In this document: one piece after another, positions 2,304-42,302 of the stretch
Layout: the number at the start of each line of letters is the position of its first letter
Numbering within the stretch: the stretch's first letter is position 1
Assembly: GCA_016699995.1 (NCBI GenBank)
Contig: CP064996.1
Coordinates: 412,330 to 476,329, forward strand
Direction of reading: 5' to 3'
Length of the DNA: 64,000 bases
Origin: a bacterium
GTDB taxonomy: Bacteria; Patescibacteriota; Doudnabacteria; UBA920
The notes under the pieces: generated by a model
What the model was told of the DNA's origin: nothing
Database searches by the model: none
What the model saw: only the letters and a program-made list of their open reading frames with translations
Program-made: the position numbers and the translations under genes

Positions 2304-3404
2304 ATGAATCAGCTGTTTCAAAAATTGAAATTTTATGACATACCGCTACTAGTAGTTAGCGGTTTGTTGCTTGTTGTGGGCCTATCCATTCAGTATGCCA
2401 TTTCGCTGGGTGAAGGTGATTTGGGTTTATTCTACCGCCAGTTCGCGTTCGCTAGCGGGGGTTTGGTGGTGTTTGTTCTGCTGGCTAATTACAACTACCA
2501 GGTGTTGGCTAAGCAAAACCGGATCATATATCCGATTTTAATCTTCGCGCTTATTTATCTGGTTCTGTTCGGAGACCCGATTCGCGGCAGCGCGCGCTGG
2601 ATTGATTTTGGATTTTTTCAGTTGCAGCCCGCAGAATTGGCAAAAATTATTATCGGTTTAGGATTATCGCGCTGGCTGTATCTTCATCGGGGCGAAATCA
2701 ATTCGTGGAAAAATATTCTACTGACTTTTGTCTACGCTGCGATGCCTGCAGTACTGATAGCCATGGAGCCGGATTTGGGCTCGTCGTTAATTGTTATGGC
2801 GGTATGGTTTGGAATTATTTTACTTAGTCCGATCCGCCGGTCTTTAATAGTAGTATTTCTAATTGCAGGAATTTTGTTTGCTGGCTTTTCCTGGCAGTTC
2901 CTGCTGCGCGATTACCAAAAGTTGCGCGTAGAAGTATTTTTGAATCCGGATAAGGATCCGCAGGGCAAAGGGTATAACGTACGGCAGGCGACAATTGCTG
3001 TAGGGAGCGGACAGCTTACCGGGCGTGGCCTGGGCCAGGGCGTGCAGAGTGGACTAAAGTTTTTGCCGGAAAAGCATACTGACTTTGTTTTTGCTGCATC
3101 AAGCGAAGAGATCGGCTGGGTCGGATCCATCGCGGTGTTAACTCTTTTTTATATTTTGATGATTCGTATAATCAAAATTATGCAGACTGCCCGCAATGAT
3201 TTGGCTATGTATATTGCCGGCGGTATTTTGTTCTTATTCGGATCGCAGGTTGTTATTAACATCGGCATGAACATCGGATTGCTGCCGGTAACAGGGATTC
3301 CTTTGCCGTTTATCACTTATGGAGGCAGCTCGATGCTAGTTACTGCCATTGCATTGGGGATTGTGCAAAACATCGCCAAACAGTCCAAAGTGCTCCGGTT
3401 TTAG
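2304..3404 (+). CDS. rodA: SEDS-family peptidoglycan glycosyltransferase (RodA/FtsW family)
   Basis: Polytopic membrane protein with the conserved SEDS segments DFGFFQLQPAELAKI, GYNVRQATIAVGSGQLTGRGLGQG and PEKHTDFVFAASSEEIGWVGS. A second SEDS copy sits in the dcw cluster at 47718, so this one is provisionally called RodA. Confidence 0.75.
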   Translation: MNQLFQKLKFYDIPLLVVSGLLLVVGLSIQYAISLGEGDLGLFYRQFAFASGGLVVFVLLANYNYQVLAKQNRIIYPILIFALIYLVLFGDPIRGSARWIDFGFFQLQPAELAKIIIGLGLSRWLYLHRGEINSWKNILLTFVYAAMPAVLIAMEPDLGSSLIVMAVWFGIILLSPIRRSLIVVFLIAGILFAGFSWQFLLRDYQKLRVEVFLNPDKDPQGKGYNVRQATIAVGSGQLTGRGLGQGVQSGLKFLPEKHTDFVFAASSEEIGWVGSIAVLTLFYILMIRIIKIMQTARNDLAMYIAGGILFLFGSQVVINIGMNIGLLPVTGIPLPFITYGGSSMLVTAIALGIVQNIAKQSKVLRF

Positions 3405-3463
3405 CCAAGTTTTTTAATTGATGTAGCCATTGGTAGCTGATATAATATAGAGGAAAGGAATAT

Positions 3464-3826
3464 ATGCGCAAAAATGATCTAAAAAGAGTGCTCGGTTGGC
3501 TGGGTTTTATGCTCCAATGTCCGGTGTGTAGTACCAAATATCAAGTTTCAAACATCAAAGTTTTGGACAGCCAGCAGGAAGAAGGTTTTCCGGAAGCGCA
3601 CTTGCTGATTCATTCCGACTGTCATAAATGCAAAAGTTCTGTTATGTTCAATATTGACATCAATGGCCCCGACATCTTCACTGTTATTGCCAAAACCGAC
3701 TTAACCAAGAAAGATACCGCTAAATTCAATGATCTTCCGGCTTTGGTGCCTAATGACTGTATTACCATTCATCAGTCTATAAAAGATTTTGACGGCGACT
3801 TTATTAAAGCCTTTAAGACTAAATAA
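3464..3826 (+). CDS. small zinc-ribbon protein (two CxxC pairs), hypothetical
   Basis: 120 aa with CPVC...CHKC. An AGGAAAGGAA Shine-Dalgarno sequence precedes the ATG, and an intrinsic terminator follows. Confidence 0.45.
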   Translation: MRKNDLKRVLGWLGFMLQCPVCSTKYQVSNIKVLDSQQEEGFPEAHLLIHSDCHKCKSSVMFNIDINGPDIFTVIAKTDLTKKDTAKFNDLPALVPNDCITIHQSIKDFDGDFIKAFKTK

Positions 3827-3836
3827 ATTACTTGCT

Positions 3837-3862
3837 AAACCCGCCACTCGGCGGGTTTTTTG
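3837..3862 (+). terminator. rho-independent terminator
   Basis: AAACCCGCC-ACTC-GGCGGG hairpin followed by TTTTTT. Confidence 0.7.
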
Positions 3863-3932
3863 TCTTTAGCGAGGCCTCTTGCCAAAAATCTCCAAATACT
3901 ATATAATTCTGAAGTATTTAATTTACTACTAT

Positions 3933-4613
3933 ATGGAAAAAATTCAATTAAAGGCCGTTAGCCGAGAGTTAACTCACCGCAATTCTAAGACAGAATACCG
4001 CGCCGGTTTGATTCCTGCCGAAATGTACGGCAACAAAGTCGATAACGTTCACTTGGCTGTGGACGCAATTGAGTTTGAAAAAGTATTTCGAAAAGCTGGC
4101 GAAAGCACAGTTATCGAGCTGGTGATGCCAGACGGATCTGCTACTAATGTACTGATCCATGATGTGCAGCACCATTACTTAAATTCCAACCCGATTCACA
4201 TCGACTTCTTTGCTGTTAACATGTCCGAAAAGCTGCAGGCAACTGTACAGATCGAATACGTTGGCGAAGCTGAAGCTGTGAAAGTTTTGGGCGGTACGTT
4301 GGTAAAAGTATTAAACGAAGTAAACGTAGAATGTTTGCCTATGGACTTGCCTCCTCATTTCGAAGTGGATATTTCTGCCTTAAAGACTTTTGAAGACTCA
4401 ATCACTGTCGCTGACATTAAAGTAAGCGACAAAGTGCAGATTTTAGCCGAAGCCGAAGAAGTGATCGCTAAGGTACAGGCTCCTCGCGATGTAGAAGCAG
4501 AATTAACCAAACAAGTGGACGAAGCAGCAGCTGTAGCTGCAGCCGTAGGTCCTGAACCGGAAACTGGCAATGTTGAAGGCGGCGAAAAAGCTGACGACAA
4601 GGCTGGCGAATAA
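3933..4613 (+). CDS. rplY: 50S ribosomal protein L25 / general stress protein Ctc form
   Basis: MEKIQLKAVSRELTHRNSKTEYRAGLIPAEMYGNK...IHDVQHHYLNSNPIHIDFFAVNMSE matches the L25/Ctc N-terminal domain. An acidic C-terminal tail is typical of the Ctc form. Start is chosen at the conserved Met (3933), not the upstream TTG at 3879. Confidence 0.8.
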   Translation: MEKIQLKAVSRELTHRNSKTEYRAGLIPAEMYGNKVDNVHLAVDAIEFEKVFRKAGESTVIELVMPDGSATNVLIHDVQHHYLNSNPIHIDFFAVNMSEKLQATVQIEYVGEAEAVKVLGGTLVKVLNEVNVECLPMDLPPHFEVDISALKTFEDSITVADIKVSDKVQILAEAEEVIAKVQAPRDVEAELTKQVDEAAAVAAAVGPEPETGNVEGGEKADDKAGE

Positions 4614-4626
4614 TTGCTAAATTTTT

Positions 4627-4660
4627 AACCGCTCTATCCTAACCGATAGGGCGGTTTTTA
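4627..4660 (+). terminator. rho-independent terminator
   Basis: CCGCTCTATC/GATAGGGCGG stem followed by TTTTT. Confidence 0.6.
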
Positions 4661-4665
4661 TATTG

Positions 4666-5496
4666 TTAAAATTCCAAGACAGCGTATCGGATGAGCTGAT
4701 TTAGGTCCTTGTGGAAGGTGAGTTTATAAGGTCTCTGTTCTGATTTTGGTCCAAGAAATTGTCTGACTGCAGAGGACAGGATAGGCTTAGTTGATGGGTC
4801 TAGTTCGAATAGAATCACTTTAGGCTTCTGTTTTCTTTTGGAGATCTGTTCGATAAGTTTTGTATAGAGGATGGAGTCGTTGGTGCCGTCTGTGAGCGCA
4901 AGTTTAGGCTCTTGCTTGAGATTGCTTATAAACTTTCTATAATCACTAACTGGAACGTAGGGGAGATTGGCAATAATTAAATCAGGATTGCTGCGAATAT
5001 TGGAAAGCAGATCGCTTTGTTTGAATGTGACTTTGGATTTTAGACTTTTTGCATTAGCCTGGGCAATTTTTAATGCCTTCGGGGAGATATCCGTTGCGGT
5101 CACCTTTATTTTAGTTCCAGCCGGTGAGTTTTGAAAGATGGAGATGGCCAAGCATCCCGATCCGGTGCCTATATCCAAAATCGATTTTATGTTTTTAGTG
5201 TTGATATAGTCTAAGGTTTTATCTACCAACCATTCGCTTTCGGGCCTGGGGATGAGTACGCTGCGATTCACCTTAAACTTTTGGCCGTAAAAATATTTAT
5301 ACCCCAGCAGGTACGCCGCCGGCGCACCTTTTTTAAAGGCCCCAATCATTTTATCCAAACTAAATTCCTGGCTTTTTGTGAGCTTTTGGCTAGGGTTTTT
5401 AATTAAATCCGATTTTGAATATTTTAAAAGATGAGACAAAAATAATTCTGTCTCATCAATGGAATGATATTTTTTTAAGGCTTCGCGAATGGTCAT
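4666..5496 (-). CDS. prmC: release factor glutamine N5-methyltransferase
   Basis: SAM motif DIGTGSGCLAISI and the NLPYVP (NPPY-type) motif. Its start overlaps the prfA stop by 1 nt (TAATG). Confidence 0.85.
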   Translation of the reverse strand: MTIREALKKYHSIDETELFLSHLLKYSKSDLIKNPSQKLTKSQEFSLDKMIGAFKKGAPAAYLLGYKYFYGQKFKVNRSVLIPRPESEWLVDKTLDYINTKNIKSILDIGTGSGCLAISIFQNSPAGTKIKVTATDISPKALKIAQANAKSLKSKVTFKQSDLLSNIRSNPDLIIANLPYVPVSDYRKFISNLKQEPKLALTDGTNDSILYTKLIEQISKRKQKPKVILFELDPSTKPILSSAVRQFLGPKSEQRPYKLTFHKDLNQLIRYAVLEF

Positions 5497-6681: not shown

Positions 6682-7206
6682 ATGTACTTATTCATACAAT
6701 GGTACTGGATCCCTTTGGGTGTCCTCAGCGTAACATTCTCCATTATCCTTCTGGTTGTTGCCTTTATTGCTTATTTGAATTGGAAGGAAAGTAGAGCGCA
6801 AAGGTTATTCTTTAAATTAACCTCTACAGTGTACGGAAGATTGCAGGAAAGTTGGGAAAAGATGGTGCAAGATGAAGCTGCGGCACGAGGACTGGAGGAC
6901 TGTAAATTATTTCGCACAGAATCCGGTAATATTATCATTGAAAAGAAAAATACCCCTGATCATCTAGGCAGGCATCCTACTCAAATACCCAGGGTTGTAT
7001 TCATATACAACCCACACAATAAAACTCTCTATTTAGACTTGATGGTGAAGTTTTCAACGCGTGCGTGGGGTGGGCCTGTATCACTGTACGAAAGCCGGGA
7101 AGTAAACTTAGATCAAACTAGTCCGGAAATTGTTTATGACAGGACAATGAAGGATGCCATGGAGCTTTATAGGCATGGTTTGGTTGTAGAAGATCACAGA
7201 AATTAA
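6682..7206 (+). CDS. hypothetical membrane-anchored protein
   Basis: Track ORF 6640-7206. The internal ATG at 6682 has a TAGGAGGAAG SD at proper spacing. One N-terminal TM segment. Confidence 0.45.
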   Translation: MYLFIQWYWIPLGVLSVTFSIILLVVAFIAYLNWKESRAQRLFFKLTSTVYGRLQESWEKMVQDEAAARGLEDCKLFRTESGNIIIEKKNTPDHLGRHPTQIPRVVFIYNPHNKTLYLDLMVKFSTRAWGGPVSLYESREVNLDQTSPEIVYDRTMKDAMELYRHGLVVEDHRN

Positions 7207-7220
7207 GTACGTTTACAAAA

Positions 7221-7255
7221 CAAAAACCACCGACTGGTCGGTGGTCTTTTTATTT
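7221..7255. terminator. bidirectional rho-independent terminator between convergent genes
   Basis: ACCACCGAC-TG-GTCGGTGGT 9 bp stem with an A-run on one side and a T-run on the other. Confidence 0.75.
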
Positions 7256-7260
7256 CTAGT

Positions 7261-7527
7261 TTATTCAGCTTTGGATCCGCGGGTCTTGCGAGGCTTCTTT
7301 TCTTTCTTTTCTGTGATAGCCTTGGCTCCGGCTGCGACTCGCTTCTTAAAGCGGTCAACGTTACCAGTGGTGTCGAGGATCTTCTGCTTACCGGTGTAAA
7401 ATGGGTGGCAATTGCTGCAGATTTCGGTTTCGATGGATTCCATAGTGGAACCTGTTGTAAACGAATTTCCGCAAGAACAAGTCACTTTTACGGCGGTATT
7501 ATAATTTGGATGGATTGCTGTTTTCAT
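7261..7527 (-). CDS. rpmE: 50S ribosomal protein L31 (Cys4 zinc form) with a Lys-rich C-terminal extension
   Basis: [28 protein letters not shown]...[12 protein letters not shown]. Start is at the conserved MK..IHP Met, inside the 99 aa track ORF. Confidence 0.85.
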
Positions 7528-7596
7528 ATATTTCAGCACGCTTGGGCGCTTGCAAGGCATGGCGCGATACGTGCATTACTGATTAGAACTTTTCTA

Positions 7597-7625
7597 AGTA
7601 TACTAGGACTTGCGCGTTTCGTCAA
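7597..7625 (-). promoter_or_regulatory. candidate sigma70 promoter for rpmE (TTGACG-N17-TATACT)
   Basis: Minus-strand -35 box corresponds to plus-strand CGTCAA at 7620-7625, and the -10 box to plus-strand AGTATA at 7597-7602, with a 17 nt spacer. Confidence 0.45.
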
Positions 7626-7638
7626 TAGTTGGTATACT
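7610..7638 (+). promoter_or_regulatory. candidate sigma70 promoter for rpsB-tsf (TTGCGC-N17-TATACT), overlapping the divergent rpmE promoter
   Basis: -35 at 7610-7615 and -10 at 7633-7638 with a 17 nt spacer. About a 120 nt leader lies before the rpsB ATG. Confidence 0.45.
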
Positions 7639-7759
7639 TTTCGGGTAATTAATTAAACATATCTTGCTTAGCTGAGTAGTATTACTCTGCTAAAAATCCT
7701 GTCGTTTCGGGCCATCTGGCCGATTATCGACCCCGCAAGATAGAAGTTAAAGGATCAAT

Positions 7760-8518
7760 ATGAAAGACATTAGTCTCTTAGACCTGCTTAAGAGCGGGGC
7801 TCATTTTGGGCATAAAACATCTCGTTGGAACCCAAAGATGAAACAGTTTATTTTTGCTTCCCGCAACAATATTCATATCATCGATTTAGAAAAAACCCGC
7901 GCTAACCTCCAGAAGGCTGTTAGCTTTGTTTCTGATATCGCTAAAACCGGCGGTACAGTTTTGTTCATTGGCACAAAGCGCCAGTCCCGCGATATCGTAA
8001 AACAGCAGGCAGAAAGCTGCGGCATGCCTTACGTTAACCTTCGCTGGCTAGGCGGCACATTTACCAACTATCGAACTATTCAAAAGACTGTTCGTAAATT
8101 GGAAAAATTACAATCCCGCAAAGACGCCCCTGACTTCGAATTAAAGTACACTAAGAAAGAACGTTTGCTCATCGAACGCGAAATCGAAAAACTAACCAAG
8201 TTGTTCGAAGGTATCAAGAACATGAAGCGTATTCCTCAGGCGGTGTTCATTACCGATATTCACCACGACGATATTGCCTTAACAGAAGCCCGTAAGATGA
8301 AAGTTCCTGTAATCGCAATCACCGACACTAACACAGATCCAAGTTTGGTGGATTACCCAATCCCGGCTAATGACGATGCCAGCAGTGCTGTAGCATTGAT
8401 CACAGAATTCATCGCTACTGCTGTGAAGGCTAATAAGTCTGCAGAACCTGTCGTCCAAGCTGCTCCAGCTGCTCCTAAGGCAGAGAAGCCAAACGCACCT
8501 GCTGCAAGCAGCAAATAA
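7760..8518 (+). CDS. rpsB: 30S ribosomal protein S2
   Basis: MKDISLLDLLKSGAHFGHKTSRWNPKM...RDIV...PVIAITDTNTDP is canonical S2. Confidence 0.95.
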   Translation: MKDISLLDLLKSGAHFGHKTSRWNPKMKQFIFASRNNIHIIDLEKTRANLQKAVSFVSDIAKTGGTVLFIGTKRQSRDIVKQQAESCGMPYVNLRWLGGTFTNYRTIQKTVRKLEKLQSRKDAPDFELKYTKKERLLIEREIEKLTKLFEGIKNMKRIPQAVFITDIHHDDIALTEARKMKVPVIAITDTNTDPSLVDYPIPANDDASSAVALITEFIATAVKANKSAEPVVQAAPAAPKAEKPNAPAASSK

Positions 8519-8537
8519 CATTATTAATAAAACTAAA

Positions 8538-9122
8538 ATGACTGACAACAATACTATCAAATTACTCCGCGAACAAACCGGCGCTGGTATTATGGACGTA
8601 AAAGAAGCTTTAGAAGAGGCTGGCGGCGATAACGAAAAGGCAATCGAAATTTTGCGCAAAAAAGGTTTAGCCAAGCAGGCTAAGAAGGCTGACCGTGCTG
8701 CCAACGAAGGCATTGTGGAAAGCTATATCCATGCTGGAGGTCGCATCGGCGTATTAGTGGAAGTGAACTGCGAAACCGATTTCGTAGCCCGCACTGATGA
8801 CTTTAAGAATTTGGTAAAGGAAATCGCTCTGCATATTGCTGCAGCTAACCCTCTATATATTTCTTCCGAAGATGTTCCTAACGAAGTAATCGAAAAGGAA
8901 AAGGAAATTTATAAAGAACAGTTTGCCGGCAAGCCGGATGACGTCATCGAAAAGATGCTCGAAGGCAAGATTGCCAAATACTACGAAGAAGCATGTTTGC
9001 TTAACCAGCCGTTCGTTAAAGATGGTGGCAAAACCATCGGCGAATTGCTTGGCGAAGCAACCGGTAAGATGGGGGAGAACATTCAGGTTCGCCGCTTTAC
9101 CCGCTACATGCTTGGTAACTAA
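8538..9122 (+). CDS. tsf: elongation factor Ts (short form)
   Basis: LREQTGAGIMDVKEALEEAGGDNEKAIEILRKKGLAKQAKKADR...VEVNCETDFVART. Sits in the conserved rpsB-tsf position. Confidence 0.9.
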   Translation: MTDNNTIKLLREQTGAGIMDVKEALEEAGGDNEKAIEILRKKGLAKQAKKADRAANEGIVESYIHAGGRIGVLVEVNCETDFVARTDDFKNLVKEIALHIAAANPLYISSEDVPNEVIEKEKEIYKEQFAGKPDDVIEKMLEGKIAKYYEEACLLNQPFVKDGGKTIGELLGEATGKMGENIQVRRFTRYMLGN

Positions 9123-9130
9123 ATTTTTTA

Positions 9131-9168
9131 GGCCTCGCGCACTGCAATTTTGCGGCGCGGGGTCTTTT
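9131..9168 (+). terminator. rho-independent terminator after tsf
   Basis: CCTCGCGC/GCGCGGGG stem followed by TCTTTT. Confidence 0.55.
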
Positions 9169-9204
9169 GTAATGCTATAATGAAGTTAATTAATTCCTGT
9201 AAGC

Positions 9205-9984
9205 GTGCCTTATAACACCATAATGAACATCACTTTTATAGTTTCTATCCTGGGGGTAATTTTTATGGTTCTGCGCCGCTTACCGGAAGCCACTATTCAG
9301 GATAAGAATAAGCCGGATTCAAAAAAAGACCGCATAGAAGCAGCTAACGAAGCTGGTTCTGTTTTGAGTGCCAAGGGTTTGCCGGTAAAGGCTTACTCCA
9401 AGTCCAAAGTTATCTTAAAGACCATTGGTCATAAGGCCGGTCAGTTCTTGTTAGAAGCTAAGGGCTTAAAGCAGGCTCCAAAAATTACTTATACTTTTCA
9501 GAAAGTCTTTCAGAATATTAAGGCTGACACTAATCCGGCTTTAGTAAAGGATGAAAAGTATTATATCAACCTCATTAAGCGCAATCCCAAAGACGATTCC
9601 TACTATGACCTCTTGGGGCAGTATTATTTAGAACATAAGAAGATGGAAGACGCGCTCAATGTGTATGAATATTTAATTACTCACGCACCGACCGAGACTT
9701 CCTATTGGGTTCGCTTAGGTTTAGCCGCGCTATTCTTAAACAATTACAAAAAGGCAGAGCAAGCTTACGAAAAGGCGGTTCAGCTCGATCCCACCAATCC
9801 GAGCCGTTTTTATAACCTTGCATTGGCAAGACAAGGGATGAAGCGCTTCGCTCCGGCTTTGGAAGCCATAAAAAAGGCTTTGGAATTGGACCCGAATAAT
9901 CAAAAGTACCAGGATTTTAATTTTGAGCTGGAGTCTAAAGCCAAGAACTCCATACCTCTTGATAATATTCACAAAAAAGAGTAA
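9205..9984 (+). CDS. TPR-repeat protein with N-terminal TM anchor
   Basis: Repeated A-x-x-Y/x-x-A-L-x-L-D-P-xN patterns (AEQAYEKAVQLDPTNP, ALEAIKKALELDPNN). GTG at 9205 or ATG at 9223. Confidence 0.6.
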   Translation: MPYNTIMNITFIVSILGVIFMVLRRLPEATIQDKNKPDSKKDRIEAANEAGSVLSAKGLPVKAYSKSKVILKTIGHKAGQFLLEAKGLKQAPKITYTFQKVFQNIKADTNPALVKDEKYYINLIKRNPKDDSYYDLLGQYYLEHKKMEDALNVYEYLITHAPTETSYWVRLGLAALFLNNYKKAEQAYEKAVQLDPTNPSRFYNLALARQGMKRFAPALEAIKKALELDPNNQKYQDFNFELESKAKNSIPLDNIHKKE

Positions 9985-10007
9985 ACTAACTGAGTATAAA
10001 TTTACCT

Positions 10008-10080
10008 GCCGTTGTAGCTCAGTTGGTAGAGCATCTCCATGGTAAGGAGAAGGTCTGCGGTTCAATCCCGCACAACGGCT
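10008..10080 (+). tRNA. tRNA-Thr (anticodon GGT)
   Basis: Cloverleaf folds by hand: acceptor GCCGTTG/CAACGGC, D arm GCTC-AGTTGGTA-GAGC, anticodon arm TCTCC-ATGGTAA-GGAGA, T arm TGCGG-TTCAATC-CCGCA, CCA encoded. Confidence 0.85.
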
Positions 10081-10096
10081 CCATGAAAGAAAACTT

Positions 10097-10120
10097 AACC
10101 CGCCTAGTGGCGGGTTTTTG
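10097..10120 (+). terminator. rho-independent terminator after tRNA-Thr
   Basis: CCCGCC-TAGT-GGCGGG followed by TTTTT. Confidence 0.7.
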
Positions 10121-10240
10121 ATTTGGTGAATTTGCCGTTTATGCCGATTTTGCAGATGAAAGTAGAGTATGGGAGAATTGACAAAACCATCCTTTTATAT
10201 TATAGTTAGCGGTTATTATCAATTTTTTAGGAGGAAAAAG

Positions 10241-12136
10241 ATGAAAGACTTAAAGCTATTTAATACTGTGCAGCCTGTTCAGTTTGTTAACGAAGAGGAT
10301 GCTCGTTTTTCCGACTTGCAAGATCGCATTGGCCTATACTCCTACAAGCTTGTGGATCTAGCTGAATCTAATCTTGAGGAAGTGCAGGCTCGTCAGTCAA
10401 TTTTGATGTGGCTGCTAAACAATAGTTCATTATTGGAAAAGTCATTCTTTAGATACGGGATGAGTGGATCCATAGATGGCTACAAGAGTGATGCGACGAT
10501 TCCAAGAAATGCTAGCAGCTTTCTAGCTTACGCACAGTTCATCTTAGAGAAACGAACAGCTTTTTGGCAACGTATCAAACAATTCAATAGTATCGATGAC
10601 TCTTTGTATCGTTTGCCTCAGCGCATTCAAAATTTAAGCAATTACCTTGCGACTGAAGGTGCTGTTAAGTACGAAGAAGAGATGGCTCTGACCAGGCGGA
10701 TGATCGCCGAATTGCGCGAGAGTACGGCGATTCAGGGGGTATTGAAATTCTCAGTGGAAAGCAGAACCCATACCGTAAGGTTTGAAAAAGATGAATCATG
10801 CTATGGTACTTGGTATTACCATCCTTGTGTTGATCCGCTCTTGGATCCTTCCTCGGGGGCGGTGGTCAAGTTCTTGAACAAAATCAAACCAGTCCGCTGG
10901 CTAATCAAGAAGACAAAGGATGCAATCTTCTACGTGAAGAAAGGAGTTGCTCAAATCCGCGAAACCCCCGAATCTATCATCGAGGACGTTCGTATGTTCC
11001 TGGTTAAGAAATGCCAGGAGGATGCCGATTTTGCCGCTTTAGGTAATTGCTCCATCACCGTCGGCTATGTGTTTGACCATACTGGCTTGACTGTATCGCT
11101 GCTGGATTGGAAATACAACAAAATTAGTTCCCGCGGCAGAGAGCTGTATGAGCCTGATCACGGCCTTGCGGTGCGAGAGCGTTCGGCGGACAAAGTTTCC
11201 AAAAAAATGAGCCAACTCCTACGGCTCCGGTATAAAAAGCAGCTCGATGTTTTGGCGGATAAGGTGTTTGTAGAAAACTGCGGACCGATCGAAATTCCTT
11301 GCAAGAATGCCCAACAGGCATTTGCCGATTTGAGTTTCCAGGATATATGGGATCAGTACGAGGAAGAAATCTCCGATCTTAGACAATGGCAAAAGGATGT
11401 AATTGCTCTCTTCAAGGATTTGGGTATCTATTCGGACCTGGCTCACATGATTATGGAACTGGAATTGCCGTATTGTTTTCCAAAAATTGTTGAACAAGGC
11501 GCTATACAGTTTGAGCGATTCTATCCCATTCGTGTTAGGACAGAGGCTAAGACCTATTGCGAACCATTCAGCGGTATCGAGATAGACGACAAGGTTGTGA
11601 ATATTACCGGTGCAAATGGGTCAGGTAAGTCAACCGTGATGTTGGCCGTTCTAGACAATTTAATGCTGGCTCATTGCGGCTTACCTGTCTTTGCAGCCGA
11701 TGCGCAGGTCATTTTGCTCGAACATATTATGCTGAGCTTTTTGGATCGCGATTCCGATAAAAGTACATTCACCGCCAAATTTGAGAAGGACGTTTTTACG
11801 ATGCAATCATTGGAGAAACTTTCTAAAGCTCAGCGGGCTAAGACGTTGATTATCAACGATGAGCTGGGTTCGGCTACGGATCCAGTGGAAATGCTCGATC
11901 TGGCAAAAGAGTATTTGATGTACCTTTATGATCTAGGGGCTCATAGCATTACTTCTAGTCAGATCAAAGAGCTAGGGATCTTTGTGGAGTCGGCGGAGTC
12001 AGGGGGCATCGGCAAGAACCTCGTCATCGACAAAACTTATACAATCAAGCCTGGCTTGGAATCTGGCCGACCCAAGGAGGTGGCCAAGCGACTGGGCTTT
12101 GATGAAATCATTAAGCGTAAGGCTGTCGCAGCCTAA
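10241..12136 (+). CDS. MutS-family P-loop ATPase (MutS ATPase domain V plus C-terminal helix) lacking mismatch-binding and Smr domains
   Basis: Walker A ITGANGSGKSTVMLAVLDNLMLAHCGLPVFAADAQVILLEHIMLSF matches GPNMGGKST...AQ.G..VPA of MutS. Walker B LIINDELGSATD. C-terminal YTIKPGLESGRPKEVAKRLGFDEII resembles the MutS Y.l.pG.a..S.gi.vA.l.G.p tail. Start at 10241 follows GGAGGAAAAAG. Confidence 0.65.
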   Translation: MKDLKLFNTVQPVQFVNEEDARFSDLQDRIGLYSYKLVDLAESNLEEVQARQSILMWLLNNSSLLEKSFFRYGMSGSIDGYKSDATIPRNASSFLAYAQFILEKRTAFWQRIKQFNSIDDSLYRLPQRIQNLSNYLATEGAVKYEEEMALTRRMIAELRESTAIQGVLKFSVESRTHTVRFEKDESCYGTWYYHPCVDPLLDPSSGAVVKFLNKIKPVRWLIKKTKDAIFYVKKGVAQIRETPESIIEDVRMFLVKKCQEDADFAALGNCSITVGYVFDHTGLTVSLLDWKYNKISSRGRELYEPDHGLAVRERSADKVSKKMSQLLRLRYKKQLDVLADKVFVENCGPIEIPCKNAQQAFADLSFQDIWDQYEEEISDLRQWQKDVIALFKDLGIYSDLAHMIMELELPYCFPKIVEQGAIQFERFYPIRVRTEAKTYCEPFSGIEIDDKVVNITGANGSGKSTVMLAVLDNLMLAHCGLPVFAADAQVILLEHIMLSFLDRDSDKSTFTAKFEKDVFTMQSLEKLSKAQRAKTLIINDELGSATDPVEMLDLAKEYLMYLYDLGAHSITSSQIKELGIFVESAESGGIGKNLVIDKTYTIKPGLESGRPKEVAKRLGFDEIIKRKAVAA

Positions 12137-37883: not shown

Positions 37884-37912
37884 AAAAACCCCTTATATAA
37901 GGGGTTTTTTAT
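37884..37912 (+). terminator. rho-independent terminator after secF
   Basis: AAAAACCCCTTATATAAGGGGTTTTTTATTT. Confidence 0.85.
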
Positions 37913-37985
37913 TTGAAAAATGGTATAATAATTATTTGACGAACTCATATATATATGTTATAATCTTGAATATTAAGATTTAGTT

Positions 37986-39077
37986 ATGGGCATTTTAGAT
38001 ACTATAATCGATACGCACCAACGAGAATCTTTGCAAGAATTTGAGTTAAACTTGATCATTGCGAAGATCCTTGAACCTTTGAAAGAGCGCGAAAAGCTGA
38101 TTCTTTCCAAGCGTTATGGTTTAAACAGCGAACCTGTTCAGACTTTAAAGGTAGTCGGGGAAGAACAGGGCTTAACTCGCGAGCGCGTTCGACAAATCGA
38201 AAAGGAGTTACTCAAGAACTTAAAACGTGGCGTTAACCAGCTGGAAGAGTTTATCTCTGCCCGTGACCTTTTAGTTACTACTATCGCCGAACACGGCGGT
38301 TTGATGTCGGAAAAGTCTCTGATCCAATTTTTAGGCTACTCGGAAGAAAGCGATGTCCAGGCATTAAAATTCTTATTGCGTTTAATTACAGAAATTGAAG
38401 AGCACAGCGAAGATGAGCATATCCGACAGTCCTGGTCTAAGATTGGTTTCGATAAAGATTTTTTGCGAGACTTTGTAAAAACCACAAAAGAATTGCTAGA
38501 TAACCATGGTCAGCCTTTGGAACCCGAAAAGTTTATCGAAAAATTTGAACAATCGGAATTCTTTAAGCAGAATCAGGACAAGCTTACTCCGAAAGTAGTA
38601 TTGAACTACCTGCACGCTGCAAGCGGCGTTAAGAAGAACCCTTTCGGAGAATTTGGATTGCATCACTGGAACGAAATTAAGCCAAAAGACGTTGGCGATA
38701 AAGCTTATTTAGTAATGAAGCACCACAAGAAGCCGGAGCATTATTCTGCAATTACCGATCTGATCAACGAGCACAACATTGACGGCCGCAAGGCTTACAA
38801 AGAAACAGTTCACAATAAGCTCATTAAAGACAAGCGCTTTGTACTAGTCGGCCGCGGCATTTATGCCTTAACCGAATGGGGCTATAAGCCAGGGGTTGTG
38901 TCCGACATCATTGTAGAAATACTTAAGGAATCTGGCGAACCTCTTACTCGCGACGCGATCGTAGAAAAAGTTTTGGATCGCCGCCTTGTCAAAAAAAATA
39001 CTGTATTGGTTGGCTTGTCTAACAAGAAATTATTCAAAAAAGTGGGTAAAAACCTTTACTCTTTAGCTAACAGTTAA
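37986..39077 (+). CDS. sigma-70 region-4-like HTH protein fused to tandem HARE-HTH-like winged-helix modules
   Basis: N-terminal LSKRYGL...TLKVVGEEQGLTRERVRQIEKELLKNLKR is a sigma r4 / LuxR-type HTH. C-terminal KAYLVMKHHKKPEHYSAITDLINE...KRFVLVGRGIYALTEW and IIVEILKESGEPLTRDAIVEKV...VGKNLYSL follow the HARE-HTH pattern. Confidence 0.55.
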   Translation: MGILDTIIDTHQRESLQEFELNLIIAKILEPLKEREKLILSKRYGLNSEPVQTLKVVGEEQGLTRERVRQIEKELLKNLKRGVNQLEEFISARDLLVTTIAEHGGLMSEKSLIQFLGYSEESDVQALKFLLRLITEIEEHSEDEHIRQSWSKIGFDKDFLRDFVKTTKELLDNHGQPLEPEKFIEKFEQSEFFKQNQDKLTPKVVLNYLHAASGVKKNPFGEFGLHHWNEIKPKDVGDKAYLVMKHHKKPEHYSAITDLINEHNIDGRKAYKETVHNKLIKDKRFVLVGRGIYALTEWGYKPGVVSDIIVEILKESGEPLTRDAIVEKVLDRRLVKKNTVLVGLSNKKLFKKVGKNLYSLANS

Positions 39078-39113: not shown

Positions 39114-40337
39114 ATGGAAAACGGTCTATTCCCAGACGTAATCAATTTGTTAAGCACTATTTGGTTCCTATTCAGTCATGGGGGATGGGTCGTTTTTGTT
39201 ATTATCACAATTTATATTCTGTATCAGTTGTATATTAACGAAATACAGGGGCAGTATGTAAACAGTATTGAGTGGACCCTATTAGAAATTAAGCCTCCCA
39301 AAGAGAATCCGACCAGCTTCTATAACGCGGAACAAGTATTTATTCAGCTGCACCAGCTGTTTGATAATTTTACATTCCAAGAAAAATACCTCGAAGGCAA
39401 GGTGGTGTTTACCATTGCTTTCGAAATTGTCAGTTTGGGTGGCCGCATCTCTTACTTAGTGCGAGTGCCGACCAAGCAGCGCGATCTATTAGAGGCCGCC
39501 TTATATGCCAATTATCCAAGCATAGAATTGACAGAAGTAAAGGATTACTTGGACAATTTTCACTATGATCCAGAAGACAAGCGCTACGATTTATTTGGTG
39601 CGGAATTTGTACCTGTTAAAAATCAGGCATATCCGATCCGTACTTACCGCGAGTTTGAAAGTTTGCACGGTCCAGAACTGAGCGAAATAGTAGTGGATCC
39701 ACTATCGCCGTTACTAGAAACTTTTACTAAGATTAGCGACCAGGAATTTTATGGTGTGCAATTCATCCTGCAGCCGGTAATGGATTCTTCTTGGGAACCG
39801 GATGCCTTGGAGCAAATTGATAAGCTGCTAGGCGAAAAGACTATCGTCACTGCTGACGGTAAAAAGGCTAAAGTCAAGAACGACATGATGGGCGTAGACG
39901 AAATTGTAAAGCAACAGATCGTCTCGATTAAAAGCAAGCTTAACCGTCCCGGTTTTAGAACCAAGATCCGAATGCTGCACTTAGGAACTAAAGAGCAATT
40001 TAATAAGAATGCAAAAAAACTAATCTTAAGTCCATTTCGAGTTTTTGCCGCACCAAACTTCAACAGCCTAAAGCCGACCTACGGTCCTAAAAAAGATTAT
40101 CGCATCTCCCCGAGCTTAGAAGGTGCGTATATCGACTGGTGGGTTAAACGCCGCAAAAAGGAACTATTTGAGGCTTACAAAGGGCGCAGTAGTTATATGG
40201 GCGATAAAACTGCTATTCTTAATACAGAAGAGCTGGCCACTCTATATCATTTCCCGATTACTACGACTTCTGTCACTCAGCCGGTAGAATCGCTCGAAGT
40301 GAAGAAGATTCAGCCACCAGCCAACCTACCTATTTAA
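39114..40337 (+). CDS. hypothetical membrane-anchored protein (N-terminal TM)
   Basis: 407 aa with one hydrophobic helix FLFSHGGWVVFVIITIYILYQLY. 21 nt upstream of the ATPase gene. Confidence 0.45.
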   Translation: MENGLFPDVINLLSTIWFLFSHGGWVVFVIITIYILYQLYINEIQGQYVNSIEWTLLEIKPPKENPTSFYNAEQVFIQLHQLFDNFTFQEKYLEGKVVFTIAFEIVSLGGRISYLVRVPTKQRDLLEAALYANYPSIELTEVKDYLDNFHYDPEDKRYDLFGAEFVPVKNQAYPIRTYREFESLHGPELSEIVVDPLSPLLETFTKISDQEFYGVQFILQPVMDSSWEPDALEQIDKLLGEKTIVTADGKKAKVKNDMMGVDEIVKQQIVSIKSKLNRPGFRTKIRMLHLGTKEQFNKNAKKLILSPFRVFAAPNFNSLKPTYGPKKDYRISPSLEGAYIDWWVKRRKKELFEAYKGRSSYMGDKTAILNTEELATLYHFPITTTSVTQPVESLEVKKIQPPANLPI

Positions 40338-40358: not shown

Positions 40359-42302
40359 ATGGAACAAAAAGAACAAATCAATTTTTTTGGCAAAACGAAC
40401 TTCCGCAATCGGCAAGTTCCTTTTGGCATTAAAACCGACGATCGCCGTCGTCACATGTATGTGATCGGTAAAACAGGAATGGGGAAGACCACGTTGATGG
40501 AAAACATGGTTATTCAGGATATCCGCAACGGCAACGGCGTCTGCTTCATCGACCCCCATGGCGATCCGATAATGAAAATTTTGGATTTTGTTCCGCCTCA
40601 TCGGATTAACGACGTGGTGTACTTTAATCCGGCCGATTTAGACTACCCGATCGCGTTCAATATATTAGAATCTGTGGAAAGCCGGTATAAACATTTAGTC
40701 GCTTCCGGCTTGATGGGTGTGTTCACCAAAATTTGGGCCAGCATGTGGTCTAGCCGTATGGAATACATTCTAAACAACACCATTTTGGCTTTGCTCGACA
40801 GTCCTGGCAACACTATGCTTGGTATTGTGCGAATGTATGTAGATAAAAAGTACCGTAAAAAAATTGTCGATAATATCAAGGATCCAATGGTTAAGGCTTT
40901 TTGGATTGAAGAGTTCGCCAATTATGCAGAAAAGTACCGAACAGAAGCCGTGGCTCCGATCCAGAACAAAGTCGGACAGTTTTTATCCTCGGCCGTCATT
41001 CGCAACATCGTGGGGCAGCCAAAATCTACAATAGATTTGCGCGATATAATGGATAACCAAAAAATTCTATTGCTGGACCTTTCTAAAGGTAAAGTGGGTG
41101 AAGATAACTCCGCGTTACTCGGAGCCATGATTATTACTAAACTCCAGTTGGCAGCTTTATCTCGCGTGGACATACCGGAAAGCGAACGTAAGGATTTTTA
41201 TTTATACGTGGACGAATTTCAAAACTTCGTCACGGACAGTTTTGCGACTATTCTAAGCGAAGCGCGTAAATATCGTTTAAACCTTACCATGGGCCACCAG
41301 TATATCGGCCAGCTGACTCCGGAAAACAATACCAAAGTTCGCGATGCCGTATTCGGTAACGTTGGCTCTATGATTGTATTCCGAGTAGGAGCGGCGGATG
41401 CCGAGTATTTAGAAACGGAGTTCGAACCGGCATTTACCCCTACAGACATCGTCAATTTGCCTAAATTCCATATCGTCTTAAAACTAATGATCAACGGCGT
41501 GGCCAGCGATCCTTTCACGGCTACAACCATTCCTGTCGATGAGAACTGGAGAATAGGGGACGGTGAAAAAGTAATTAAAGTTTCTCGAGAACGCTATGCT
41601 AATCCGCGTGAAGAAGTAGAAGAAAAGATTCAGCGCTGGATGGGCACAGAATTTCATGAGGCTTCTGCCGATTCGCACAGTGCTGAAAATGGCGAACAGT
41701 CTATCCGCAGACAGCGAGATCTTCCCGCACAAAAAGCTGGGACGGGCGGTTATGCTGCGTCCAGAGAACGCACCCCAGTGACTCGTCCGGAGAGCAATGA
41801 GAATATGCGCCAAACTGATCAAAATGATCAGCCTGGGGTAGTCGCGGAAGTAAGTGAAGTGGCTGTGCGTAAAGCCAGCATCCAAATCGCCGATGATTTC
41901 TTAAACCGCGTAAAGACTCCGGCCAAAGCTCCAGCCTTTGGTCCATCCGCCGCTGCGCCGGGAAAGCTGGGTCCAAATAGTAATTCAAATAGAACTGGAG
42001 GCCGTTCCTTTAGCAAGCCTAACAGTAGAACAGCTGCGGCACAGCCTGGCAACGCGTATTCGCGCCCAAAACCGGCTCCAAAAGGCCCAAAGAAGCCCGA
42101 CTTTTGGAAAACTGCCCAAACTCTAAATCAACAAAACCAGGAAGGATTGGCTAATAACATCGCTGATGCTTTAGAAGGCGCGTTTACAACAGCACCACCA
42201 AAACCTCAGCCAGCTGCACAACAAGCTCCAAAACCTCCAGTAGACGGTCAAAGTGCAAATCAGACCGGCATAGCAGAGGAAGGACAGACTTACAATTTAT
42301 AA
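40359..42302 (+). CDS. TraD/TraG/VirD4-like (AAA_10-type) P-loop ATPase with long low-complexity C-terminal tail
   Basis: Walker A YVIGKTGMGKTTLMENM and Walker B LYVDEFQNF. The last roughly 200 aa are rich in P/A/Q/G/N. Confidence 0.6.
   Translation: MEQKEQINFFGKTNFRNRQVPFGIKTDDRRRHMYVIGKTGMGKTTLMENMVIQDIRNGNGVCFIDPHGDPIMKILDFVPPHRINDVVYFNPADLDYPIAFNILESVESRYKHLVASGLMGVFTKIWASMWSSRMEYILNNTILALLDSPGNTMLGIVRMYVDKKYRKKIVDNIKDPMVKAFWIEEFANYAEKYRTEAVAPIQNKVGQFLSSAVIRNIVGQPKSTIDLRDIMDNQKILLLDLSKGKVGEDNSALLGAMIITKLQLAALSRVDIPESERKDFYLYVDEFQNFVTDSFATILSEARKYRLNLTMGHQYIGQLTPENNTKVRDAVFGNVGSMIVFRVGAADAEYLETEFEPAFTPTDIVNLPKFHIVLKLMINGVASDPFTATTIPVDENWRIGDGEKVIKVSRERYANPREEVEEKIQRWMGTEFHEASADSHSAENGEQSIRRQRDLPAQKAGTGGYAASRERTPVTRPESNENMRQTDQNDQPGVVAEVSEVAVRKASIQIADDFLNRVKTPAKAPAFGPSAAAPGKLGPNSNSNRTGGRSFSKPNSRTAAAQPGNAYSRPKPAPKGPKKPDFWKTAQTLNQQNQEGLANNIADALEGAFTTAPPKPQPAAQQAPKPPVDGQSANQTGIAEEGQTYNL

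Follow-up and report, generated by a model that had tools for sequence, protein, structure and literature searches.

The window analysed here is a stretch of 64,000 nt (64 kb) of contig CP064996.1 (positions 412,330 to 476,329, forward strand; assembly GCA_016699995.1) from a bacterium of the Doudnabacteria within the Patescibacteria. At 37986-39077 it carries an open reading frame (ORF) on the + strand whose product of 363 aa joins region 4 of a sigma-70 factor to four winged helices of the HARE type. The protein was named SigHARE, a label of this report only. Its gene is the first of a three-gene operon and is followed by a DUF8128 membrane protein and by an ATPase resembling type IV coupling proteins (T4CPs). 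The coordinates of the ORF agree with an earlier sequence-only reading of this DNA. The protein is composed of the following parts, with R4 standing for region 4 and W1 to W4 for the winged helices:

37986-39077, + strand: SigHARE, whole ORF, 363 aa plus stop; sigma region 4, then four HARE-type winged helices.
38046-38240, + strand: sigma-70 region 4 (4.1 and 4.2), aa 21-85.
38175-38201, + strand: recognition helix of region 4, T64-R-E-R-V-R-Q-I-E72.
38244-38441, + strand: W1, aa 87-152, acidic, poorly conserved; predicted local distance difference test (pLDDT) >93 in the structural model; hhalign probability 95% with W4 and 91% with W2.
38454-38660, + strand: W2, aa 157-225, near-neutral, poorly conserved; seen in the model; hhalign probability 93% with W3 and 96% with W4.
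38691-38879, + strand: W3, aa 236-298, canonical HARE-HTH (helix-turn-helix), basic; resembles the N-terminal domain of the delta subunit of RNA polymerase (RNAP).
38892-39065, + strand: W4, aa 303-360, second HARE-HTH, basic; the second stretch matched by the Pfam HARE-HTH model.

With Pfam, Sigma70_r4 (PF04545) was detected at aa 29-80 with 38.2 bits (threshold 24.1) and HARE-HTH (PF05066) in two stretches with 45.9 bits (threshold 25.9). The structure was predicted with AlphaFold from 77 aligned family members, the most distant of them at 32% identity. In the resulting model (pLDDT 94.8, predicted template modelling score 0.84), region 4 and four winged helix-turn-helix (wHTH) domains follow a short N-terminal helix (aa 3-18) and form a predicted compact body. 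The chain stops three residues past W4 and an acidic C-terminal tail is absent. According to this model, SigHARE is a five-module HTH/wHTH protein, and its whole architecture of R4 and four wHTH domains was not found in any solved protein. The sequence-only reading had described an isolated region 4, a linker of 120 aa and two HARE-HTH winged helices. The isolated region 4 and the HARE-HTH assignment were confirmed. The linker had to be given up, as aa ~87-230 form two divergent HARE-like winged helices according to AlphaFold (pLDDT >93) and hhalign (91-96%), and the number of winged helices is thus four and not two.

Sigma region 2 (PF04542), region 3, GerE (PF00196) and the receiver domain (PF00072) were not found in SigHARE with Pfam at E ≤ 1, nor were region 2/3 models with NCBIfam at the same limit. 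The stop-to-stop frame opens at 37977, three codons before the ATG, and therefore cannot hold a hidden N-terminal region 2/3. The N-terminal residues M-G-I-L-D (aa 1-5, 37986-38000) are invariant in 43 homologues of the Doudnabacteria clade (alignment A1), and an M-x-I-L consensus is kept ahead of region 4 in the wider family.

Members of the family are annotated variously as RpoS, RpoD, 'RNA polymerase sigma factor' and 'RNA polymerase delta subunit', and no name fits the domain content. That SigHARE is a genuine alternative sigma factor, as the first three of these automatic annotations and the strong similarity in region 4 would have it, is hardly credible. Regions 2 and 3 are absent, the ~20 residues before region 4 leave no room for either, and the rest of the protein consists of winged helices. 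In NCBIfam, matches were confined to the C-terminal ends of models for RpoS, RpoD, SigA and MzaA and fell far short of the cutoff in every case. The best full-length sigma model was RpoS with 56 bits against a cutoff of 378.7, and the sigma70-ECF superfamily model reached 36.3 bits against 42.9. Without regions 2 and 3, SigHARE therefore lacks the modules for strong core RNAP binding and for melting of the -10 element. An N-terminus of the LuxR/GerE type was also rejected, since the best matches are region 4 of primary sigma factors, with a profile E-value of ~1e-19 to domain 4 of RpoD/SigA.

The family profile matched only region 4 of RpoD, SigA and RpoS (groups 1 and 2) in the PDB, with E-values of 3e-19 to 1e-16, and in this profile alignment the consensus tLeeiGkeygitRERvRQie faces their region 4 sequence. 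By its sequence, region 4 of SigHARE is of the primary-sigma type. It has in common with RpoD/SigA and RpoS the complete HTH of 4.1 and 4.2, the recognition helix TRERxRQIE and the 4.1 motif (RE..L..RYGL), and it is 37% identical to domain 4 of SigA from S. aureus. Unlike in primary sigma factors, region 4 is N-terminal in SigHARE and four winged helices follow; regions 1.2, 2 and 3 are missing, so that SigHARE cannot serve as an initiation factor.

The main contacts of E. coli sigma-70 to the -35 element are made by R554, L573, T583, R584, E585, R586, R588 and Q589. Their counterparts in SigHARE are, in the same order, presumably R35, L54, T64, R65, E66, R67, R69 and Q70. In the alignment of 77 sequences, L54, E66, R67, R69 and Q70 are invariant and R43, T64 and R65 are conserved to ≥90%, while R35 is invariant in the closer alignment only. 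Region 4 has a mean net charge of +4.0 and is conserved, with 12 columns at ≥90% in the family alignment. The simplest prediction from its sequence is that it recognises a TTGACA-like hexamer.

The four winged helices were compared with each other by hhalign of their sub-alignments. Five of the six pairs were linked with 91-96% probability (W1-W3 was not detected), and W1 to W4 are therefore paralogous repeats of the HARE type. None of them showed any resemblance to region 4 in the profile-profile comparison. Pfam HARE-HTH recognises W3 and W4 only and misses W1 and W2; when scanned per copy, W3 (25.8 bits) and W4 (25.7 bits) lie right at the threshold. The mean net charge across the family is -3.2 for W1, -1.6 for W2, +4.5 for W3 and +5.0 for W4. 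W3 is the best conserved part of SigHARE with 20 columns at ≥90%, W4 is conserved with 9 such columns, and W1 and W2 are poorly conserved. The conserved pattern of W3 reads DKAYLV..KP.H...I....; TVHN.LIKD.RFVLVGRGIYAL.EWGY, and W4 contains RRLVKKNT... and KKLFKKVGKNLY. Two copies of a HARE motif had been claimed before. The first one, DKRFVLVGRGIYALTEW at aa 282-298, is real and nearly invariant in the family, but the second one, KKLFKKVGKNLYSLA, is degenerate. The C-terminal half as such is HARE-HTH and not an unrelated fold.

The delta subunit (RpoE) of the Firmicutes is the best-studied bacterial HARE-HTH protein. Delta and W3 share the HARE-HTH fold and the signature '(D/K)(G/K)RF..(L/V)G...(W/Y).L..W(G/Y)'. 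SigHARE differs from delta by four winged helices instead of one, by the added region 4 and by the lack of a polyanionic C-terminal tail, and it comes from Patescibacteria and not from Firmicutes. As the delta model TIGR04567 reached only 26.4 bits against a cutoff of 42 (NCBIfam) and the acidic tail is absent, SigHARE was rejected as a true delta subunit. When Aravind & Iyer defined the HARE-HTH domain (Cell Cycle 2012), their abstract reportedly mentioned proteins from bacteria in which this domain occurs together with traits of sigma factors and of RNAP alpha, a general idea similar to that of a sigma-derived module joined to HARE-HTH.

The likeness to delta leads to a second explanation, namely that SigHARE is an accessory subunit bound to RNAP, with region 4 on the flap-tip helix of beta, the docking site of sigma region 4, and the HARE winged helices on beta', as in the case of Firmicutes delta. 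It would then act as an essential subunit, recycling factor or specificity factor peculiar to Patescibacteria and not as a free DNA-binding regulator. A complete 4.1 and 4.2 of the primary-sigma type would suit this role, the very high degree of conservation in W3 agrees with a conserved partner protein, and JGI calls some members 'RNA polymerase delta subunit'. The delta score and the missing tail, the feature that defines delta, speak against it. Furthermore, region 4 on the flap would displace region 4 of the housekeeping sigma factor, which is present in Patescibacteria (PF04545 in RpoD, SEML1_0063), and the conserved operon with the ATPase is left unexplained. We regard this explanation as possible but doubtful.

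The operon and its control elements contain the following further features:

37884-37909, no strand: palindromic GC-rich stem-loop between A and T runs just after secF, 11-bp stem AAAAACCCCTTATATAAGGGGTTTTT.
37936-37964, + strand: near-consensus sigma-70-type promoter, TTGACG-17 nt-TATAAT with extended -10 TG, 11 of 12 positions.
39114-40337, + strand: DUF8128 protein, 407 aa, second operon gene; N-terminal hydrophobic helix (aa 7-51), then a cytoplasmic alpha/beta domain.
40359-42302, + strand: T4CP/VirD4-like P-loop ATPase, 647 aa, third operon gene; core aa ~17-432.

The ATPase has intact Walker A (GKTGMGKTT) and Walker B (YLYVDEF) motifs. It was matched in Pfam by TrwB_AAD_bind with 45.2 bits (threshold 20.5) and also by DUF87 and TraG-D_C. 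TraD/VirD4-like T4CP models of NCBIfam matched partially, with every equivalog far under its cutoff, and matches in the PDB (TrwB, DotL) covered the P-loop region only. The enzyme is without a membrane segment of its own; the membrane helix of the operon sits on DUF8128. No solved structure was found for DUF8128 by sequence even at E ≤ 10. The soluble domain of DUF8128 resembles VirB4 (TrwK) in structure only, and as DUF8128 has no P-loop motifs, we infer that the likeness is to the N-terminal domain of VirB4. Together, DUF8128 and the ATPase give a VirB4-like layout with a VirD4-like motor.

Both proteins are encoded by a single ORF of 900-1,076 aa in 47 of the 48 Saccharibacteria-type genome loci (L033-L080; e.g. 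L036, 7000-9924) and by separate genes in 31 loci of the Doudnabacteria type. This Rosetta-stone fusion shows that they act together. The phage-protein family phrog_5156 likewise spans DUF8128 and the ATPase. The C-terminal tail of the ATPase (~215 aa, 41655-42299, + strand) is of low complexity and rich in Pro, Ala, Gln and Gly. Its composition varies by lineage: it is Lys-rich in L036, and the homologue in L084 has a zinc finger (PF23477) instead. By analogy to the tail of TraD, which binds TraM, it could be a partner-binding tail.

The three-gene cluster proposed from the sequence alone, in which a membrane protein and a T4CP-like ATPase are encoded besides SigHARE, is real and strongly conserved. 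Of 79 genome loci and three more distant ones, 81 were informative, and in 80 of them DUF8128 and the ATPase gene come after SigHARE in the same orientation. The loci are from Doudnabacteria, Saccharibacteria, a metagenome-assembled genome (MAG) labelled Uhrbacteria and other Patescibacteria. The exception is a MAG of Nanosyncoccus (L045), where ∼4.8 kb are inserted between SigHARE and the ATPase gene. Judged by eye on the ORF translations, this insert (7046-11641) appears to contain a gene similar to AsnA or aminoacyl-tRNA synthetases, two genes similar to S-adenosylmethionine-dependent methyltransferases, an MccF-like LD-carboxypeptidase and a truncated GluRS-like gene. Small clusters for a peptide-nucleotide antibiotic or for immunity look similar. 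The flanks differ by clade, with SecDF and thioredoxin in Doudnabacteria and TopA directly upstream in Saccharibacteria. On a distant Patescibacteria contig (L081), fused DUF8128-T4CP genes lie on both sides of SigHARE, at 2812-5325 (837 aa) and at 7521-10115 (864 aa). A locus can thus hold two motor genes and only one SigHARE gene.

The genes of the operon are closely spaced, with 36 nt between SigHARE and DUF8128 and 21 nt between DUF8128 and the ATPase gene, and no internal terminator of any strength was found within the three genes. Upstream, the hairpin at 37884-37909 looks like an intrinsic terminator in both orientations that, going by its sequence, divides the SecDF unit from the SigHARE operon. 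A similar hairpin precedes the SigHARE gene in most loci of the Doudnabacteria type. The promoter ends 22 nt before the start codon. It is one of three sites for TTGAC-N15-19-TATAMT in the window, where 0.36 are expected, and judging from the sequence the source organism does use promoters of the TTGAC...TATAMT type. Doudnabacteria-type loci keep the promoter as ATTTGAC...TATG(C/T)TATA(A/C)T. In loci of the Saccharibacteria type, TTGACA-17-TATGATATTAT was found in 50 of 52 cases against a background of 0.058 matches per 330 nt, and no promoter match was found between SigHARE and the ATPase gene in 50 such loci. The genomes with these promoters are mutually related and the counts are hence not independent.

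The gene order suggests a third explanation by analogy. TrwA (R388), TraM (F) and PcfF (pCF10) are small DNA-binding proteins whose genes accompany or immediately precede that of a T4CP-type ATPase, as the SigHARE gene does. TrwA has a ribbon-helix-helix fold. The same fold is found in PcfF (PMC6514445). In their own systems, the three proteins recruit or stimulate the motor: TrwA raises the DNA-dependent ATPase activity of TrwB, and the C-terminal tail of TraD binds TraM (PMC7434980). SigHARE may accordingly be compared to a DNA-recognition adaptor that would bind DNA sites and recruit or stimulate the downstream hexameric VirB4-NTD (N-terminal domain)/T4CP-like ATPase, which would move DNA or nucleoprotein. 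Adjacency on the same strand under changing flanks, a single promoter ahead of SigHARE and the motor genes and the long, variable tail of the ATPase are consistent with such a role. So is the distribution of the T4CP homologues of Patescibacteria, which are mostly orphans: 5,713 VirD4-like homologues were counted in 2,918 genomes and just 148 of them near virB4 (PMC12102498). The same authors state that exaptation "cannot be ruled out", and their text does not mention a sigma-like partner (PMC12102498). However, TrwA, TraM and PcfF have folds unrelated to SigHARE, so that the analogy is functional only. They act on mobile elements, together with a relaxase and an oriT, and do not count among the essential genes of a chromosome. 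In the conserved SigHARE cluster, neither a relaxase gene nor an oriT-like element was seen, and no fusion of SigHARE to the ATPase was seen among about 270 homologues listed. Moreover, the ATPase is dispensable and SigHARE essential in S. epibionticum (see below), and service to the ATPase is hence not its sole role. The adaptor is unlikely as the full explanation.

The family is large. More than 6,000 SigHARE homologues were found at E ≤ 1e-3, and PF04545 and PF05066 occurred in 120 of 120 among the matches listed. At E ≤ 1e-30, at least 564 clusters (50% identity) were obtained, most of them aligned end to end. The members comprise ~330-400 aa. Those with a name belong to Doudnabacteria, Saccharibacteria, Nanosyncoccus, Uhrbacteria (label on a MAG), Parcubacteria and unclassified Patescibacteria. 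NCBI lists the family as 'sigma factor-like helix-turn-helix DNA-binding protein'. When SigHARE was compared with a phage collection, only region 4 matched, to sigma factors of phages or hosts, and no full-length homologue was found.

Evidence on the importance of the gene comes from the transposon sequencing (Tn-seq) of Southlakia epibionticum by Wang et al. (Cell 2023; PMC10633639, Tables S1 and S2). SEML1_0294 of this organism (1,050 bp, called 'RpoS' by PROKKA) contains PF04545 at 27-72 and PF05066 at 225-283 and, according to the domain parser DPAM, one tri-helical and three winged domains. It follows TopA and one hypothetical gene and lies ahead of the fused ATPase (PMC10633639). Based on the identical Pfam architecture, length and synteny, it is the apparent orthologue of SigHARE. 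SEML1_0294 was classified as essential (ES/ES/ES) in this species, the one in which the family has been tested; its 24 insertions in the input DNA fell to 1-2 once selection had been applied. Its ATPase neighbour SEML1_0293, a protein of 921 aa with a DNA-binding domain of type IV secretion systems, was non-essential (NE/NE/NE). Both families were flagged as core and enriched in Patescibacteria (Table S1). As the downstream ATPase is dispensable, polarity presumably does not explain the essentiality of SEML1_0294. Two genes are called sigma in the table, namely RpoD (SEML1_0063, carrying PF04545) and SEML1_0294, and the main text of the study does not take up the latter (PMC10633639). An orthologue as essential as RpoD and a single true sigma factor in S. 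epibionticum are also points in favour of the RNAP-bound subunit described above.

Outside the Patescibacteria, a relative was found on the Abditibacteriota plasmid pIAD-21. BCM94557.1 ('RpoD', 568 aa) aligned with R4 and W1 to W4 over ~350 aa (hhalign 99.8%, 24% identity) and has an extra N-terminal region of 213 aa. Hence the module is older than the Patescibacteria family and is used beyond it. BCM94557.1 is encoded by the first gene of its operon (L085, AP024153.1, 26-10554), which continues with an N6-methylase of the Eco57I/MmeI type, DUF4007, a small AAA ATPase and a protein of 1,371 aa for which there was no Pfam match. Unlike SigHARE, the protein is plasmid-borne and is followed by these genes and not by DUF8128 and a T4CP. 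From its gene content, the operon looks like an uncharacterised restriction-modification, BREX-like or defence system.

A fourth explanation thus starts from the whole R4 and W1-W4 module at the head of a methylase operon: SigHARE would sense or regulate a system of DNA modification or of the defence type, and its HARE winged helices would read the modification status of DNA. HARE-HTH is said to have been originally described, in the work of Aravind & Iyer from 2012, in restriction-enzyme contexts. The ATPase of the window matches PADLOC mad8 at 9e-16, and region 4 of SigHARE resembles that of MzaA, its sole match in PADLOC and a sigma-like component of MZA defence. On the other hand, defence genes are normally patchy and dispensable, but the SigHARE family is flagged as core and is essential. 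It lies stably on the chromosome between housekeeping genes (SecDF, MraY, Mur ligases) and shows no compositional anomaly, and a methylase or nuclease is absent from the conserved cluster. This explanation is very unlikely.

The neighbourhood was also inspected. A mobile-element origin of the SigHARE locus was rejected for want of a compositional anomaly and because the neighbours are housekeeping genes. The locus lies in a same-strand housekeeping run at 28819-52642, in which thioredoxin is the only minus-strand gene; the 3' end of the operon is convergent with it. SecA, UDG, aminopeptidase N, SecD and SecF are encoded upstream of SigHARE. The run continues downstream with Peptidase_S11 (D-Ala-D-Ala carboxypeptidase type), Glycos_transf_4 (MraY type), an amidohydrolase, a MurD-like ligase, FtsW and a DUF4012 protein of 729 aa. 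No further sigma or HARE protein was found within the window, and Rfam detected five tRNAs, all of them elsewhere in the window, and nothing in or near the SigHARE gene.

It had been proposed from the sequence that the protein is a transcription factor engaging RNAP or DNA in an unusual way, which is plausible. We favour, with slightly less than even confidence, the reading that SigHARE is a sequence-specific DNA-binding factor, distinct from sigma factors, that reads -35-like sites, has an essential role linked to transcription and maybe serves as regulator or DNA adaptor of the ATPase. Region 4 would read TTGACA-like (-35-like) hexamers. The basic W3 and W4 would bind the flanking DNA, or possibly RNAP as the delta subunit does, and the acidic W1 and W2 would serve as a rigid spacer or as a platform for protein interactions. 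By occupying the -35 elements of promoters, among them that of its own operon, which is perfect or nearly so, SigHARE would be a global, essential regulator of transcription, with possible autoregulation at its own consensus -35. It would also control the co-transcribed ATPase of the secretion-motor type and possibly hand DNA to it.

Several points weigh against this reading. Binding of the family to DNA or to RNAP is a prediction from sequence and modelled structure. The kept -35-contact residues are equally expected if region 4 merely retains its fold and charge, and the extreme conservation of W3 could reflect a protein partner, e.g. RNAP, and not DNA. The apparent orthology to SEML1_0294 leans on Pfam architecture, length and synteny. 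A purely global role in transcription leaves the universal linkage to the ATPase unexplained, whereas a purely operon-specific role leaves an essential SigHARE next to a dispensable ATPase unexplained. A pure adaptor role thus seems insufficient given the essentiality data, and a pure housekeeping role seems incomplete given the universal gene linkage. The RNAP-bound subunit and the adaptor, the two main rivals, are compatible with each other. A more far-reaching version, in which SigHARE would be an essential general transcription component specific to Patescibacteria whose free-standing, -35-reading sigma domain and delta-like winged helices couple promoters or RNAP to a membrane motor of the VirB4/VirD4 type, is rather improbable.

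The combination of region 4 and HARE domains is not rare, as the large family is already catalogued in databases, and its essentiality and enrichment in Patescibacteria are already contained in a published supplementary table (PMC10633639, Table S1). In the literature searched, no description was found of the architecture of region 4 and four HARE domains, of the family-wide conservation of sigma-type recognition-helix residues, of the operon with the VirB4-NTD-like protein and T4CP-like ATPase and its fusion in Saccharibacteria, or of an essential regulator that contrasts with its dispensable motor. Likewise, the literature on DUF8128, on HARE and RNA polymerase in Patescibacteria and on coupling proteins and sigma factors in Saccharibacteria yielded no functional description of the family, and the text of Meheust 2019 does not mention it.

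Patescibacteria account for a large part of bacterial diversity, and their very small genomes encode very few regulators; beside its one true sigma factor, S. epibionticum has the SigHARE orthologue. The labels RpoS, RpoD and delta subunit on members of the family are mislabels that need correction. The orphan T4CP-like ATPase gains in SigHARE a concrete and testable partner. If the coupling to a membrane motor were true, transport across the envelope would be tied to transcription or to promoter DNA in these bacteria, which depend on a host. Flagged as core, essential where tested and made up of the promoter-reading part of sigma and four HARE winged helices, the SigHARE family is a strong candidate for a hitherto overlooked central factor in the gene expression of Patescibacteria.

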